Of a DNA stretch of 59,568 nt, positions 15,309-39,207 are shown one piece after another. The stretch is from Candidatus Buchananbacteria bacterium RIFCSPHIGHO2_01_FULL_44_11 (GTDB lineage Bacteria; Patescibacteriota; Patescibacteriia; Buchananbacterales; UBA6539). A program made the position numbers and the translations under genes. The stretch is from assembly GCA_001817345.1 (NCBI GenBank), contig MHIE01000006.1:1-59568 (forward strand), given 5' to 3'. How positions within the stretch are numbered: position 1 is the stretch's first letter; the number at the start of each line of letters is the position of its first letter. Under the pieces are notes generated by a model. It saw nothing but the letters and a program-made list of their open reading frames with translations, made no database searches and was not told the DNA's origin.

Positions 15309-15896
15309 TGGTGGACCGTGAGAGAGTTGCTCCGATCCCGACTTTACGTCGTGGATCGAGGATCCCGCCTTCTTTAATAAAAATAATTTGGTGGCGGGAA
15401 ACTCTCGACCTCCTGTTTGTCCCGATAAACTTTTGGACCGGAGCGGGGTCCCCGCCAGAGGCGGGTGCGCCTCTGGCGCAGAACCGTGCGGCCTCCACAT
15501 TGTCCCGACAAACTTTTGGACCGGAGCGGGGTCGAACCGCTTACCTCCACATTGCAAATGTGGCGTTCTACCAGGTGAACTACCGGCCCAAAAGTTTGTC
15601 GAGGATTCTCGACTACTTTTATTTGAAAAATTTGTAAGTCGGAACAAATGTGGTGCTCTAGCCAACTGAGCTACAGGCCCATTCTGAATTTTCGAGGATT
15701 CTCAACTACTTTAATTTATAAAAAACAGTAAGTCGGAACAAATGTGATGCTCTACCAGCTGAGCTACGGGCCCACCAAAGATATCGAGGATCCCGGTTTT
15801 TTAAAGTTTACAAATTAATGAGCCGGACAAATGTGGTATTCTAGCCTACTGCCTGCCCGCCGAAGCTCGGAGAGCGTAGGCGGGAGCTAACGGCCC
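15309..15896 (-). other. Concentric tRNA-Ala locus: three extra 5' exon-like pieces (15645-15680, 15739-15773, 15828-15896) and two extra 3' pieces (15434-15502, 15309-15419) around one intact tRNA-Ala
   Basis: See findings. All 5' pieces end ..C(A/C)CACATTTG and both 3' pieces start CAA. The outermost pair has a matching acceptor stem, GGGCCGT/ACGGTCC-A-CCA. Confidence 0.6.
15517..15589 (-). tRNA. tRNA-Ala(UGC), intact core copy
   Basis: GGGCCGGTAGTTCACCTGGTAGAACGCCACATTTGCAATGTGGAGGTAAGCGGTTCGACCCCGCTCCGGTCCA. It has the G3:U70 pair and anticodon loop TTTGCAA. CCA is not encoded. Confidence 0.85.
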
Positions 15897-16182: not shown

Positions 16183-16255
16183 AGTGTTATAATTTTAAAT
16201 AACCAATTTTAAATTTTAAGTACTGGATATTTATTTATAATTTAATATTAACCGA

Positions 16256-16525
16256 TGGTGGGCAGCATAGGAATCCCCGCCAAAGGCGGGTGCGCCTTTT
16301 GAGCCAGAGGCTCATCTGCCTTTGGTATGAGGCGCAGAACCTATGACCTCTTCGGTGTAAATGAAGCGCTCCCCGCCCGTTTCGCCTTACCTGATTTATC
16401 AATGGGTTTGAGAGGAGTCGAACCTCTGACCTTCTCGGTGTAAACGAGACGCTCTAACCAACTGAGCTACAAACCCATAATACGGCGAAGCAAGGCGGGC
16501 GGGTAACCAGCTGAGCTAGCTGTCC
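16256..16525 (-). tRNA. Outer tRNA-Val(UAC)-like gene interrupted in the D-loop (insert 16371-16502, contains the inner tRNA-Val) and in the T-loop (insert 16276-16336)
   Basis: With the inserts removed it reads GGACAGC TA GCTC AGCTGGTTAC GAGC G CTTCA TTTACAC CGAAG AGGTC ATAGG TTCGATT CCTAT GCTGCCC A CCA. All four stems form, with A3.C70 and A31.C39 mismatches. Confidence 0.5.
16403..16476 (-). tRNA. tRNA-Val(UAC), intact inner copy
   Basis: GGGTTTGTAGCTCAGTTGGTTAGAGCGTCTCGTTTACACCGAGAAGGTCAGAGGTTCGACTCCTCTCAAACCCA. Confidence 0.9.
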
Positions 16526-16526
16526 T

Positions 16527-16610
16527 TGGTGCGGACGGAGGGACTCGCCCCGTCGAATGACGGGGCGCCCGATTGGATAATCGGGCGAACTCCTTTCTTA
16601 GTATAATTAC
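16527..16610 (-). pseudogene. tRNA-Leu-like 3'-end copy with hairpin insert
   Basis: TGGTGCGGACG is identical to the 3' end of the adjacent tRNA-Leu. It is followed by hairpins TCGCCCCGTCGAATGACGGGGCG and CCCGATTGGATAATCGGG, then GAACTCC. Confidence 0.5.
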
Positions 16611-23798: not shown

Positions 23799-23968
23799 TG
23801 GTGGGCATGCCCGGATTCGTCCCGATTTTGTCCAAATCTTTGATTTGGTCACAAAATCGAGGATCTCACCGCCGTCGGCGGGACCCCGCCCATGGCGGTG
23901 GCCGCCTTTATTGAAAATAATTAATGTGGCGGGAAACTAGGAGCCACCGCCTTGTCTCAAGCATTTAA
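23799..23968 (-). pseudogene. tRNA 3'-end copy (..GAATCCGGGCATGCCCACCA) with a 115-nt T-loop insert (23820-23934), leading into the helix that carries tRNA-Ile
   Basis: Same module order as 15330-15399 and 23518-23584: GTCCCGA..TCGAGGA, then CCCGCC..GGCGGG. Confidence 0.45.
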
Positions 23969-24040
23969 TGCGCGCACCTGGATTCGAACCAAGAACCACC
24001 GCCTTATAAGGGCGGTGCTCTACCATTGAGCTATGCGCGC
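23969..24040 (-). tRNA. tRNA-Ile(UAU)
   Basis: GCGCGCATAGCTCAATGGTAGAGCACCGCCCTTATAAGGCGGTGGTTCTTGGTTCGAATCCAGGTGCGCGCA. Anticodon loop is CTTATAA. It is flanked by a perfect 14-bp inverted repeat. Confidence 0.75.
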
Positions 24041-24185
24041 ATTAAATGCTTGAGGAACTAATGGTTGCCTTTATATTATATGGATTAATTGGAGCTAAGT
24101 AAATCTATCCATGGAATCGCGTCGCTCGGCTCAAATGGACATTTACGCCCATTTGACTCCTCGCTAGCAATTATAACCACCTAAG

Positions 24186-25715: not shown

Positions 25716-28427
25716 ATGAGTAATCAGGAAATTCCCAAAGTCTACGAACCAAAAAACGTTGAAGACTCTATCTACAAAAAGTGGGAAGAGTCTGGTTTTT
25801 TTAATCCCGATAATCTACCCGGCCATCGGCCGAAAGCTTTTAGCATTGCCATGCCGCCGCCCAACGCCACCGGCGTGCTGCACATCGGCCATGCCGAGTT
25901 TATTACGATTCAAGACTTGGTGATTCGTTATCAAAGAATGCTGGGCAAGAAAACTTTGTGGCTGCCGGGCACTGACCACGCCGCCATTGCGACCCAGACT
26001 AAAGTGGAAAAATTAATCAAGGCCAAAGACGGCAAGTCTCGGCATGACTTGGGCCGGGAAGAGTTTTTAAAGCGAGTCAAAACCTTTGTGGTGGAGTCCC
26101 AAAATACCATCCGCAATCAAATCCGAAAAATGGGGTCGAGCTGCGACTGGTCGCGAGAACGCTACACGCTTGACAGCGGTTTGACCAAAGCCGTTAATGA
26201 AGCTTTTGTCCGGATGCATAAAGACGGGTTGATTTATCGGGGCAACCGGATTGTTAACTGGTGTCCGCGGTGCCAATCAACTTTAGCGGATGACGAAGTG
26301 GAATATCGGGAACAAAAAGCGCCGTTCTACTATTTTAAATATGGACCGGTGGTAATCGGCACCGCCCGGCCGGAAACCAAATTTGGCGATAAGGTGATTA
26401 TTGTCCATCCCGATGACAAACGCTATAAAGATTTGGTTGGCCAAGAGCTGCCGGTGGAGTGGATTTTAGGACCGATTACCGCCAAAGTGATTGCCGATCC
26501 AGTAGCGGAGATGGATTTAGGTAGTGGCGCCATGACAATTACCCCTGGCCACAGCTTTGTTGATTTTGAACTGGCTCAAAAATATCATTTACCGATCGAA
26601 AAAATCATTAACGAAAAAGGAGAGCTGACTCAAGTCGCCGGCTCGTTTGCCGGTCTGGACGTTGCCACCGCCCGGCATAAAGTTTTTGAATTGCTGAAAA
26701 GTAAAGGACTAGTTGATCACGTTGACGAAAATTACGTTCACAATCTTTCTGTTTGCTATCGGTGTGATACGCCGGTAGAGCCGCTGGTTTCAGAGCAGTG
26801 GTTTATCGCTGTTAATAAACCGATCAAAAAATTTGGCGGCAAATCTTTAAAGGAGCGGGCTTTGGCCGTAGTCAAAGACAGCCAAGTGGAAATTGTTCCG
26901 GAACGGTTTAAAAAAGTCTATTATCACTGGCTGGAGAATTTACGGGACTGGTGTATCAGCCGGCAAATTTGGTTTGGCCACCGCATACCCGTTTACTACC
27001 GTAAACGGGAAAATCCGAAATCCTCCGCCAAAGGCGGATCCGCCTCCGGCGGGAAAACTCAAAACTCAAAACTGGATAAAAGTCTAACGGAAGATGAAGT
27101 TTACGTCGGCTCTACGCCTCCGGCGGGCGAAGGCTGGCAACAAGACCCCGATACTCTCGACACCTGGTTTTCGTCGGGCCTCTGGACTTTTTCGACGCTC
27201 GGCTGGCCGGAGAAGACTAAGGATCTGAAGACGTTTCATCCAACATCGCTGATGGAAACCGGTTATGACATTTTATTTTTTTGGGTGGCGCGGATGATCA
27301 TTATGTCCACCTATTTGATGGATCAGGTGCCGTTTCAGCAGGTTTATCTTCACGGTTTGGTTCGCGACGAACAAGGCCGGAAAATGTCAAAATCTTTAGA
27401 TAACATTATTGATCCCCTGGAGGTGATCAAAAAGTTTGGCGCTGACGCCGTTCGTTTGAGTTTATTGATTGGCGTCACACCGGGTAATGACCTGAATTTG
27501 GCGGAAAGTAAAATTGCCGGCGCCCGGAATTTTATCAATAAACTTTGGAACATTTCGCGCTATATTTTAATGACTACTAAAAAGCCCGAACTGATTGAGA
27601 CGCGGCCAAAACCAAAAACTTTGGCTGATCAGTGGATTTTGGATGAATTAACCGTTTTGCAAAGTACGGTCACCACCCACCTTGATGCTTATCAATTTTC
27701 TATGGCCGGGGAGGCGATTTATGAATTCAGTTGGTCAAAATTCGCCGACTGGTATTTGGAGATCGCTAAAATTGAAGGCGGCAAAGACGACATTTTGCTT
27801 TATGTTCTGCAGAACTTATTAAAACTTTGGCATCCTTTTACGCCTTTTGTCACTGAGCGGATTTGGGCGATGATTGATCCCAACGGTAAGCCCAAAGCGC
27901 TTTTGATGGTGGAGTCCTGGCCTCAGGTTAGCCGCCAGGTCAGTAGTCGCGAAACCAAAGTGGTTAAGGATTTCAATTTGGTTCAGCAGGTTGTCTCCAC
28001 TATTCGCAATCTGCGGGCCGAGAGTAATATTGCGCCGGGCAAACTTTTGACCGCCATTATCGTGGCTGGCCCTAAGGTTAAAATAATCAAAGACCAGTCA
28101 GAGGTAATTAAGTCCCTGGCCCGTCTTGGCGAGCTTGAGGTTTTAGTCAAAGGCAAAAAGCCGGCCGGCTCTCTTTCCGCTTTGGCGGCCGGCCTGGAGA
28201 TTTATTTGCCGGTTTCTGATATGATAGACATAGGTAAAGAAGTTTCTCGGTTAAACTTGGAAGTCAAGCGTGTCAAAGATTTTATCATTCATCTGGAAAA
28301 TAAACTCCAGAATCAAAAGTTTTTGGAACGGGCGCCGAAAAATATTATTGCCAATGAGCAAAAAAAGCTGGAGGAAAATAAAGAGAATCTGGGAAAAATC
28401 CAGCAGCAGTTAAAAAGTTTAAAATGA
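25716..28427 (+). CDS. valS: Valyl-tRNA synthetase
   Basis: PPPNATGVLHIGHA, KMSKSLDN, C-terminal coiled coil. It carries an in-frame hairpin insert at 27024-27054. Confidence 0.95.
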   Translation: MSNQEIPKVYEPKNVEDSIYKKWEESGFFNPDNLPGHRPKAFSIAMPPPNATGVLHIGHAEFITIQDLVIRYQRMLGKKTLWLPGTDHAAIATQTKVEKLIKAKDGKSRHDLGREEFLKRVKTFVVESQNTIRNQIRKMGSSCDWSRERYTLDSGLTKAVNEAFVRMHKDGLIYRGNRIVNWCPRCQSTLADDEVEYREQKAPFYYFKYGPVVIGTARPETKFGDKVIIVHPDDKRYKDLVGQELPVEWILGPITAKVIADPVAEMDLGSGAMTITPGHSFVDFELAQKYHLPIEKIINEKGELTQVAGSFAGLDVATARHKVFELLKSKGLVDHVDENYVHNLSVCYRCDTPVEPLVSEQWFIAVNKPIKKFGGKSLKERALAVVKDSQVEIVPERFKKVYYHWLENLRDWCISRQIWFGHRIPVYYRKRENPKSSAKGGSASGGKTQNSKLDKSLTEDEVYVGSTPPAGEGWQQDPDTLDTWFSSGLWTFSTLGWPEKTKDLKTFHPTSLMETGYDILFFWVARMIIMSTYLMDQVPFQQVYLHGLVRDEQGRKMSKSLDNIIDPLEVIKKFGADAVRLSLLIGVTPGNDLNLAESKIAGARNFINKLWNISRYILMTTKKPELIETRPKPKTLADQWILDELTVLQSTVTTHLDAYQFSMAGEAIYEFSWSKFADWYLEIAKIEGGKDDILLYVLQNLLKLWHPFTPFVTERIWAMIDPNGKPKALLMVESWPQVSRQVSSRETKVVKDFNLVQQVVSTIRNLRAESNIAPGKLLTAIIVAGPKVKIIKDQSEVIKSLARLGELEVLVKGKKPAGSLSALAAGLEIYLPVSDMIDIGKEVSRLNLEVKRVKDFIIHLENKLQNQKFLERAPKNIIANEQKKLEENKENLGKIQQQLKSLK

Positions 28428-38469: not shown

Positions 38470-38554
38470 TGGTGCACCCGACAGGATTTCCCGCCCGAGA
38501 CGGGTCCGCCTTCTTGTTTTCTTATTAAGGTGGGCGGAGAACCTTAGCCGGTAG
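38470..38554 (-). pseudogene. Copy of the tRNA-Arg(CCG) T-loop-to-CCA end with a 49-nt T-loop insert (38490-38538)
   Basis: TGGTGCACCCGACAGGATTT is identical to 38555-38574. The insert holds TCCGCC..GGCGGA and CCCG..CGGG hairpins and ends before GAACC. Confidence 0.6.
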
Positions 38555-38631
38555 TGGTGCACCCGACAGGATTTGAACCTGTAACCCTCAGCTCCGGAAG
38601 CTGATGCTCTATCCAGTTGAGCTACGGGTGC
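38555..38631 (-). tRNA. tRNA-Arg(CCG)
   Basis: GCACCCGTAGCTCAACTGGATAGAGCATCAGCTTCCGGAGCTGAGGGTTACAGGTTCAAATCCTGTCGGGTGCACCA. Confidence 0.9.
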
Positions 38632-38668
38632 TAACGCTTTGGCGGGTAAAAATTTCACCCCGTCTCAC

Positions 38669-38737
38669 TTGCTCCCAGCAGGAATCTCCGCCAGAGGCGG
38701 ATCCGCCCCTTTAGAATTTATAGGATGGCGGAGAACC
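38669..38737 (-). pseudogene. Orphan tRNA 3'-end fragment (..GATTCCTGCTGGGAGCA) with a 46-nt T-loop insert
   Basis: Hairpins TCCGCCAGAGGCGGA and TCCGCCCC..GGCGGA lie between GAATC and GAACC. There is no 5' half. Confidence 0.45.
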
Positions 38738-38802
38738 GTGATAGGCGAGTAGTGTGTCCAATTCCGCCAAAAAGTGGAATAATCTTTTTCTGTTATAACC
38801 AT

Positions 38803-38874: not shown

Positions 38875-39207
38875 GTAAAACAAAATGATACTACTATAAA
38901 ATTAAGCTTTAGTCAACCAGCCAGCCGCTGCTGATGCAGCGGAAATATCAAATTACAAATTTTAATCCCCAAACAATTTTCAAAATCCAAAATTTAGTCA
39001 TGGCAGTTTTTGATGGTTGGGATTTATTGGCGACGTAGGGCGAGTGTCCGCCTGAGGCGGACCGAATTTAGCTAGCCAAAAAGGGTGTAATACCCCGTCC
39101 CGTATATAGTAAACTTAAAGCCTCTACGGGACTGCGTAAGAAGTGGACAGAGCAAGCTCTGCGGTCAATACCCTTTATTTGAGATTTGGTGCTTGAAAAT
39201 TCGTTTT

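Follow-up and report, generated by a model that had tools for sequence, protein, structure and literature searches.

The window, a stretch of 59,568 nucleotides from Candidatus Buchananbacteria bacterium RIFCSPHIGHO2_01_FULL_44_11, is contig C6 (bases 1-59568) of a genome of 943,148 bases in 30 contigs that is 78% complete (G000, hereafter the source genome). Here we describe a pair of short GC-rich hairpins inside its valS gene and the family of palindromic sequences to which this pair belongs. The host gene valS (valine-tRNA ligase, ValRS) lies at 25716..28427 on the + strand as an open reading frame (ORF) of 903 amino acids. Its translation has its best PDB match in 1gax (E 1.3e-189), and it is the sole strong ValRS match in the source genome.

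Two adjacent hairpins in the valS reading frame

The two hairpin units are directly adjacent on the + strand. Unit 1 (TCCGCCAAAGGCGGA, 27024..27038) has a 6-bp stem and a 3-nt loop and supplies the codons S-A-K-G-G. Unit 2 (TCCGCCTCCGGCGGG, 27039..27053) also has a 3-nt loop, with 5 perfect pairs and an outermost T opposite G, and supplies S-A-S-G-G. Together they span 27024-27053, followed by an A at 27054, and add the 10 residues SAKGGSASGG. The translation across them is in frame and free of stops (...GHRIPVYYRKRENPKSSAKGGSASGGKTQNSKLDKSLTEDEVYVG..., with the context also reading ...HRIPVYYRKRENPKSSAKGGSASGGKTQNSKLDKSLTEDEVYVG...), and the preliminary description of this DNA, which had placed GC hairpins in frame inside valS, was correct in this respect.

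The pair interrupts a series of A-rich heptamer repeats. On its left side, the repeats occupy 27009..27023 (GAAAATC CGAAATC C, + strand), and on its right side AAAACTC is repeated about three times at 27054..27073. An 18-mer of the right flank is matched at 18/18 positions at C4:1530 and C2:2768, and it also flanks a second copy in leuS described below. By our reading of the sequence, the heptamer array becomes regular once the 30 nt are removed (GAAAATC CGAAATC CAAAACT CAAAACT CAAAACT), suggesting two layers at this site: an older, repeat-coded loop expansion and a younger hairpin pair nested within it. The RNA of 26995-27090 is predicted to fold at -28 kcal/mol (z -3.0). The arrangement is not that of an intrinsic terminator, since the hairpins are followed on the + strand by A-rich heptamers with no T run and lie inside an uninterrupted essential ORF.

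A second exact copy of the 13-mer CGCCTCCGGCGGG from hairpin 2 is located 74 nt downstream, at 27115..27127 on the + strand, in a different reading phase and within the conserved PPxGxGW motif. The usual PPKGEGW becomes PPAGEGW there, and relatives read PPKG.GW. This copy may have arisen by a small template switch or by conversion from the hairpin.

The insert lies in a lineage-variable, predicted disordered loop of ValRS

ValRS genes were sought in 40 related genomes; 29 loci were fetched, and 28 of them gave the stretch between WCISRQ and DTWFSS. The hairpin peptide occurs in none of these 28 genomic relatives, whose shortest loops read ...VWYRGEEIYVG.... The site is hypervariable, and some relatives have A-rich heptamer-type tandem repeats there without hairpins. 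Different GC hairpins occupy this site in three of the 28, namely two adjacent 6-bp/3-nt hairpins in L009, one 10-bp hairpin in L010, and one hairpin in L008. A total of 117 loops extracted from 120 ValRS sequences of the protein database range from 21 to 255 amino acids. Only three of them contain SAxGGSAxGG: the protein of the window itself, the identical protein P0002, which is encoded by an independent contig, and the distant homologue P0011. Five further loops read xADxPxA(D/E/G), which by our codon reading would be produced by a double hairpin of this kind with its phase shifted by one base. Compared with its orthologues, valS evidently carries the hairpin pair as extra DNA. The segment is thus lineage-specific in the orthologue alignment that the preliminary description had proposed as a check.

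Structure mapping, also proposed there, places the insert in a surface loop, as had been expected. An AlphaFold model based on a 41-sequence alignment has a mean predicted local distance difference test (pLDDT) score of 86.3 and a predicted TM-score (pTM) of 0.80. The sole stretch with pLDDT < 50 comprises residues 433-458 (27012..27089, + strand), that is, the insert and its heptamer-coded K/S/N/Q-rich flanks, between the strands 426-430 and 460-464. In this model, the insert forms the tip of a surface β-hairpin and is predicted to be a disordered loop, and the loop lengths of the homologues mark the same stretch as lineage-variable. When aligned with Thermus thermophilus ValRS, the insert region is gapped and falls inside the Cys-containing stretch of that enzyme.

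The loop after GHRIPVWY is also a hot spot for the insertion of whole domains (L017, L024, L028, L018, and L093; P0003, P0004, P0006, P0007, P0010, P0015, P0019, P0086, and P0118). One such insertion is a module of ~120 amino acids (..GFHESVVPQV..TYRLRDH..), for which P0003 gave no Pfam hit at E 0.001. P0118, P0086, and L093 have a histidine phosphatase domain (PF00300) inserted instead. Repeat-coded linkers rich in K/S/Q border the inserted domains. The A-rich tandem repeats of the synthetase loops have a period of about 7 (14 in L003) and code for K/S/N/Q-rich peptides (AAAACTC, AAATCCC, and AAAATTC). They are present in the relatives L003, L004, L006, L008, L011, and L014, and the same kind of repeat stands beside hairpin pairs in the KsgA gene of G005 (L188), in L123, and in L125. 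These repeats could be targets, parts of a composite element, or products of slippage.

The hairpins belong to a dispersed family in the source genome

The hairpins are members of a dispersed family, as the preliminary description had proposed. The window contains TCCGCCNNNGGCGGA 3 times (mean of 100 shuffles, 0.00) and CCGCCNNNGGCGG 9 times (shuffle mean 0.10, maximum 1); a variant of this stem with a 4-nt loop is absent from it. The whole source genome contains 33 copies of CCGCCNNNGGCGG. Palindromes with a GCCNNNGGC core and a stem of at least 5 number 101 in the source genome (2-13 in 20 shuffles), and GC-rich perfect hairpins with a stem of at least 6 and a loop of 3-4 number 332 (64-74 in 3 shuffles). 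All three outer pairs are complementary at 52 of the 747 GCCNNNGGC sites, where about 11.7 are expected. The outer triplets of the perfect 6-bp units vary (TCC 20, TCA 6, CCC 5, TGC 3, CCA 3, and others), indicating that pairing is kept through changes on both sides.

The valS pair itself is closely matched elsewhere in the genome. It is identical at 21/22 positions to 38686-38707, which lies between two tRNA-Arg genes, at 23/26 to 38487-38512, and at 24/28 to 15451-15478. It is also identical at 21/22 positions to all four copies of a longer repeat (C2:11575, C4:5526, C10:22845, and C22:12142). Eleven tandem arrays are present in the source genome: two in real genes (valS and leuS), one just upstream of a start, and eight outside genes or in ORFs of at most 128 amino acids. 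Long ORFs of C22 contain two single hairpins (16734 and 20160), which were dropped as apparent chance matches in low-complexity proteins. An Rfam search of the window returned only rRNA and tRNA, and no Rfam family matches the hairpins.

A second in-frame insert in leuS is homologous to intergenic repeats

A second in-frame insert with several hairpins is present in leuS (G000:C4:117-2768), at about C4:1527-1625 (AKTQNSKSSAKGGPQPEADAPLVHASSGKSQSQ). It follows directly after the WG.PIP motif, at a site homologous to the valS loop site. The leuS and valS genes share the 21-mer AAATCCTCCGCCAAAGGCGGA (21/21) and the 18-mer AAAACTCAAAACTCAAAA. The leuS units are read in two phases because of a 2-nt spacer, and the third unit pairs only through G-U, that is, at the RNA level. 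The insert is absent from all 19 related LeuRS sequences with an extractable loop (of 29 loci); the LeuRS of L050 has CEHCYTESTDAVEGVDY where the source genome has 33 extra residues. No IleRS-like ORF, which would have given a third test of the homologous site, was found with the motif used in the 78%-complete source genome.

The leuS insert matches C10:14273-14328 at 53/56 bases (E 5e-19) and C26:1319-1368 at 47/50. Both matches are the cores of repeats with GTCATTGCGAG-type inverted ends, like the four-copy repeat mentioned above. The in-frame insert of this synthetase is therefore homologous to intergenic repeats of the same genome. The four-copy repeat resembles a MITE (miniature inverted-repeat transposable element) and is about 170-190 nt long (C2:11540-11720, C4:5490-5670, C10:22810-22990, and C22:12060-12240). 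Its ends are inverted (TGTCATTGCGAG...CTCGCAATGACA), it contains hairpins nested in series, and individual 15-nt hairpin units are present in some copies and missing from others.

The double hairpin is widespread and read mainly in one phase

Searches with the 29-nt double-hairpin pattern TCCGCCNNNGGCGGATCCGCCNNNGGCGG show that the family extends far beyond one genome, across the class of the window and across phyla. The pattern is found in at least 120 contigs of GTDB species genomes, and all 80 matches listed are from metagenome-assembled genomes (MAGs). By our own arithmetic, about 0.02 chance matches would be expected in the 596 Gb searched. According to the record titles among the matches listed, the carriers include many Patescibacteria groups together with Omnitrophota, Kiritimatiellae, Verrucomicrobiota, Lentisphaerae, Planctomycetales, Ignavibacteria, Bacteroidota, Chloroflexota, and others. 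In the class of the window, 96 of 401 genomes (85 of 301 genera) carry 1-14 copies each, and a reversed control pattern occurs in 0/401. Two carrier contigs of 868 kb and 1.6 Mb are taken to be long-read assemblies from their size and names.

Eighty loci were read, and 77 of them contained 81 copies. The 30th base is A in all 81, and the commonest flanks are TTT on the left (32) and AAA on the right (25). Purines prevail in the first loop and pyrimidines in the second, making the pair close to a perfect palindrome. Forty-seven of the 81 copies lie in open frames of at least 200 amino acids, where the phase is strongly biased: 41 give SAxGGSAxGG, 2 give PPxADPPxA, and 4 give RxRRIRLxR.

The host ORFs encode real conserved proteins (10/10 ORFs picked by eye; 93 Pfam families among 45 ORFs). 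Pfam-confirmed hosts in translation are AspRS (at two positions, in L073 and L102), ValRS (at the N-terminus, in L093), CysRS, and PheT (two copies in one gene); aminoacyl-tRNA synthetase genes make up 5 of the 45 host ORFs outside the source genome. Further Pfam-confirmed hosts are UvrC, DnaJ, DnaG, ALAD, DEAD helicases, PGK, ArsA, TatD, and AdoHcyase, and a class-V aminotransferase carries the hairpin in the basic phase. The double hairpin is also found in DNA polymerase III α, RNA polymerase β', adenylosuccinate and SAICAR synthetases, and, in two Ignavibacteria MAGs, in sorting domains of the type IX secretion system (T9SS). KsgA and ribosomal protein L7/L12 are hosts in two genomes of the window's own family, and the KsgA of the source genome lacks the element carried by that of G005. 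The genomes G020 and G024 share a copy that sits inside a larger repeat, where an empty site is not readable. In one viral carrier from IMG/VR (L193:387-1868), an ORF of 494 amino acids encoding a reverse transcriptase (RVT_1, E 2e-37) has the double hairpin at its C-terminal end.

Metagenome contigs delimit the repeat at the valS site

Contigs of four public DNA runs from four studies of groundwater and soil were aligned on 26400-27700. The valS flanks enter the hairpins from both sides with 0 differences in all four runs (26400-27051 and 27028-27299), overlapping by 24 nt. The summed contig depth in the bin 27016-27059 is 12,614-45,886, compared with roughly 3-13 about 100-200 bases upstream, so that the hairpins are several thousand times deeper than their flank in these metagenomes. 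The loose ends of other contigs fall at 27023/27024 and 27056/27057, and hundreds of unrelated contigs share exactly the stretch 27024-27056 (+ strand). Depth and loose ends thus indicate a repeat that is very abundant in these communities and whose limits, seen from outside, are 27024-27056. No joint skipping 27024-27056 was among those listed; the listed joints are short-sided and fit the ValRS of other organisms.

The valS pair as a probable translated insertion element

We consider, with a probability of roughly 0.7, that the valS hairpin pair is one copy of a tiny palindromic insertion element that is translated and tolerated in a disordered loop, acting like a Rickettsia palindromic element (RPE) without being a member of that family. 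The element would consist of 15-nt units (NNNGCC-NNN-GGCNNN), usually in a 30-nt tandem pair that is itself a nearly perfect palindrome. Such a pair would have inserted into a ValRS loop already expanded in the clade by A-rich heptamer repeats, and the reading frame would be kept because each unit is 15 nt long. The phase in valS would give SAKGGSASGG, a flexible Ser/Ala/Gly stretch (in a peptide such as SSAKGGSASGGK) that is probably tolerated at the tip of the surface β-hairpin. Copies in other phases or in structured parts of proteins would mostly be lost, leaving genic copies that nearly all read SAxGG. Since the sole strong ValRS match of the genome has an unbroken ORF, and since the phase bias implies selection on the peptide, the insert is presumably translated; it is probably near-neutral.

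As to movement, the copies at T-loops, at the cores of larger palindromes, and between T- and A-runs lead us to guess that insertion takes place at hairpin tips during replication or repair. Copying could be hairpin- or single-strand-based and performed by the host replication and repair machinery, or might involve some nuclease. No transposase tied to the element was found in our searches. The source genome has three Y1_Tnp (PF01797) ORFs of 177-187 amino acids (C28:118-669, C7:6247-6780, and C18:7959-8522). The ORF on C28 is embedded in arrays of other short hairpins (CAGGCTTCAGCCTG, CAAGCTAAAGCTTG, and TCTCCGCTTGGAGA), and that on C7 is flanked on both sides by CCCACTTCAGTGGG; judged from their arrangement, both look like pairs of repetitive extragenic palindromes (REPs) and REP-associated tyrosine transposases (RAYTs). 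Mobilization of the valS-type unit by a Y1/RAYT enzyme is unsupported, because the presence of PF01797 does not track copy number. A phage vector was likewise rejected, the pattern being present in only 2 viral contigs.

Several observations weigh against an insertion element. The PF01797 genes of the source genome are flanked by different hairpins or by none, not by the valS-type unit, and PF01797 is present in 3/5 genomes with 8-14 copies and equally in 3/5 with none, a small sample of incomplete MAGs. Neither a target-site duplication nor recognizable ends were found at valS, where the pair itself is palindromic. The exact 29-mer occurs in the source genome only in valS, the other arrays having variant stems, and viral contigs with the pattern are 2 of 2.9 million. 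An allele of this valS gene without the 30 nt was not seen, and the nearest non-identical ValRS in the protein database is just 73% identical over the region. The organism's own contigs (Logan) stop inside the repeat, and no public RNA run is listed as containing the valS stretch. Finally, P0011 carries the same peptide at the same site, which could reflect site preference or ancestry, and the strong phase bias, like the repeated occurrence in proteins of translation, would agree with a selected function as well.

Alternative explanations

The serious rival, which we nevertheless consider unlikely, is that the hairpin pair is not a passenger but a selected nucleic-acid signal, such as a protein-bound DNA or RNA hairpin or a signal for translation pausing, mRNA stability, uptake, or recombination. 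The compensating changes of the outer triplets that maintain the stems, the G-U-only pairing in the third leuS unit, the stable RNA fold at valS, and the phase bias of 41/47 would all be consistent with such a signal. So would the location of both genic arrays of the source genome at homologous loops of two class Ia synthetases, the synthetases among the hosts elsewhere (5/45), and the copies adjoining tRNA-like sequences. On the other hand, the hosts are highly diverse, with 93 Pfam families in 45 ORFs, and the position varies within one protein, as in ValRS (the N-terminus in L093, the loop here) and AspRS (L073 and L102). The distribution is patchy (96/401 genomes, 85/301 genera), orthologues manage without the element, and no Rfam family matches it.

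It is very unlikely that the peptide is ancestral ValRS sequence that was lost in most lineages. The preliminary description had taken the same peptide in orthologues of unrelated bacteria as a mark of ancestry, and P0011, which is 56% identical to the ValRS of the window and reads SAKGGSASGGK at the same site, formally presents one such case. However, alignment A1 has 39 other sequences, of which 23 are nearer to the window ValRS than P0011, and all 23 lack the peptide, as do all 28 genomic relatives. Only 3/117 loops carry it, two of these being the window's own sequence, and the five loops with the same kind of hairpin in the other phase (xADxPxA) speak for insertions at the DNA level. Because of the 23 closer sequences without the peptide, and because the same 30-mer occurs in dozens of unrelated genes, independent insertion appears to explain P0011 better than ancestry. 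A comparison of P0011 with P0017 (KKSKV[SAKGGSASGG]KSQKSKVEE and KKSKVKSQKSKVEE, respectively) resembles a site with and without the pair, but is only suggestive, since the two proteins are only 55% identical.

It is highly improbable that the segment formed where it now stands, through slippage and the local creation of a palindrome in a low-complexity loop, with the likeness to other hairpins due to convergence. The loop is indeed hypervariable with tandem heptamers in relatives, and a regular heptamer array is restored by removing the 30 nt. Yet the same 24 stem bases recur unchanged in at least 81 copies, which lie in unrelated genes from many phyla, the valS pair is matched at 21/22 positions at other loci of its own genome, the leuS insert is 53/56 identical to an intergenic repeat, and the reversed control gave no match in 401 genomes. 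Least credible is an assembly artefact, for instance two sequences falsely joined at a high-copy repeat: metagenomes of the source type contain the 30-mer in extreme abundance and contigs break inside it, but in four runs, each from a different study, both valS flanks reach the hairpins without differences and overlap, the identical protein P0002 is encoded on an independent contig, the flanks are contiguous in-frame ValRS sequence, and the phase bias in other genomes is not explicable by an artefact.

Significance

More tentatively, and with rather less confidence than we place in the insertion at valS, the double hairpin may be a protein-free 'nano-element' spread across phyla. It would be the smallest mobile DNA known to colonize both essential genes (RNA polymerase, DNA polymerase III, L7/L12, and many tRNA synthetases) and tRNA-like sequences, perhaps inserting at hairpin tips or A/T tracts via host replication or repair and being read as an SAxGGSAxGG loop. 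If so, it would be selfish DNA of a new kind, from which proteins of uncultured bacteria gain loop insertions in a way not recognized before. In-frame palindromic repeats have so far been a curiosity of Rickettsia and some mitochondria; here a far smaller element behaves in the same way, in one in four of the genomes sampled from a Patescibacteria class and in MAGs of many other phyla, inside core genes of replication, transcription, and translation. It could account for a class of unusual inserts, rich in Ser/Ala/Gly or in Pro/Ala/Asp, and of small 'hypothetical proteins' in metagenome annotation, as well as contig breaks in such assemblies, and could serve as a natural marker of permissive sites in essential proteins. 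It would also pose a directly testable question, namely how a 30-nt palindrome spreads without a recognizable transposase.

Comparison with known elements

The preliminary description had drawn a parallel to the RPEs, which are confined to Rickettsia and close kin. In the accounts of Ogata and colleagues in 2000 and later Rickettsia genome papers, RPEs reportedly measure roughly 100-150 bp and add roughly 30-50 residues; we know of no transposase of their own. The parallel holds for the behavior, since the present family is likewise a dispersed palindrome found in frame in conserved housekeeping proteins at tolerated sites and in or beside RNA genes, here beside intact tRNAs in tRNA-like 3' fragments. 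It does not hold for size or host range. A unit is 15 nt, a pair 30 nt, and the shared stretch 33 nt, adding 10 residues, and the hosts are Patescibacteria and, by record titles, other phyla. This separation from RPEs is by description and not by sequence.

REPs are described in PMC3733652 as extragenic sequences of 20-40 bp with a GTAG or CGTC tag at one end. The present family resembles REPs, bacterial interspersed mosaic elements (BIMEs), and their Y1-type RAYTs in its short, GC-rich, often paired hairpins of many copies, and two of the three PF01797 genes of the source genome are flanked by short hairpins of their own. Unlike REPs, 47/81 copies are in long open frames and 2/11 arrays of the source genome are in genes. 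The units begin with TCCGCC, TCAGCC, TGCGCC, or CCCGCC instead of a GTAG or CGTC tag, and they do not flank a cognate Y1 transposase.

Allomyces has comparable hairpin-pair elements, known as double-hairpin elements. Mitochondrial GC clusters and repetitive hairpin-forming elements (PMC4478555 and PMC2800124) are small GC-rich hairpins in A+T-rich DNA that are organellar and lineage-specific. The mitochondrial elements share with the present family mobile hairpins or pairs, a route of movement that is unexplained, and locations in intergenic DNA, rRNA, and sometimes coding regions. They differ in that here a single sequence is shared by bacteria, free-living or episymbiotic, from many phyla.

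MITEs such as Correia elements (review PMC10969869) are non-autonomous elements with palindromic ends that can sit in genes. The leuS insert, as the core of a repeat of about 170-190 nt with GTCATTGCGAG inverted ends, is MITE-like, and four near-identical copies of such a repeat are in the source genome. By contrast, the valS pair is about five times shorter than typical MITEs, and neither inverted terminal repeats beyond itself nor a target duplication are apparent there.

DNA uptake sequences (uptake signal sequences, USS; DNA uptake sequences, DUS) are over-represented short motifs that lie in genes with a phase bias, in poorly conserved protein parts, and often in inverted pairs. They accumulate by substitution and are specific to one lineage. 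The present motif is likewise over-represented, genic, and phase-biased, whereas it is extra DNA relative to orthologues (ValRS, LeuRS, and KsgA) and crosses phyla, which does not fit accumulation by substitution.

Literature searches, with supplementary files not covered, found no published description of the element. Literature matches to the string GGCGGATCCGCC were set aside as, by title, unrelated biomedical papers, probably reporting cloning primers.

Family copies beside tRNA genes

The remaining copies in the window are mostly associated with tRNA genes, which bears on the earlier statement that the same hairpins are inserted in tRNA T-loops. Hairpins of the same kind are indeed found at the T-loop position, but they lie in truncated 3' duplicates downstream and not in the tRNA genes called by ARAGORN or Rfam. 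The tRNA genes are intact and are then followed by a partial 3' duplicate, in which a hairpin pair or array separates GGTTC from the remainder of the T-loop. Such duplicates follow tRNA-Ala, tRNA-Val(tac), tRNA-Arg(ccg), and tRNA-Arg(tct), and tRNA-Leu is followed by one with other hairpins.

The tandem pair CCCGCCAGAGGCGGG + TGCGCCTCTGGCGCA (15451..15480) occupies the T-loop position of the duplicated tRNA-Ala 3' fragment. At 16277..16289, CCGCCAAAGGCGG lies within a multi-hairpin insert at the T-loop position of a tRNA-Val-like fragment. Another tandem pair (23868..23899) is located downstream of tRNA-Ile, and the insert at 38487..38512 separates two copies of the tRNA-Arg(ccg) 3' end. The copy TCCGCCAGAGGCGGATCCGCC (38686..38707) stands between GGTTC and GATTCC of a tRNA-like fragment. 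Finally, TCCGCCTGAGGCGGA (39047..39061) is inside a longer repeat that is also present at C5:15673; the near-identical copies of this repeat, at 39000-39130 and C5:15620-15750, extend over at least 130 nt and have no Rfam match at the gathering threshold.

Five of the eight tRNA genes of the window are trailed by a truncated 3' duplicate or a tRNA-like 3' fragment (15427-15515, 16250-16400, 16540-16610, 38470-38555, and 38640-38800 (- strand)). The duplicate after tRNA-Val resembles a mini-tRNA that lacks the D-arm and ends in CCA. A similar case on the tRNA side is seen in another Parcubacteria MAG, beside a cluster of five tRNAs (L111:2119-2147). ARAGORN also calls a tRNA-Ile at 23968-24041 (-) with the anticodon TAT, which is unusual for tRNA-Ile in bacteria.

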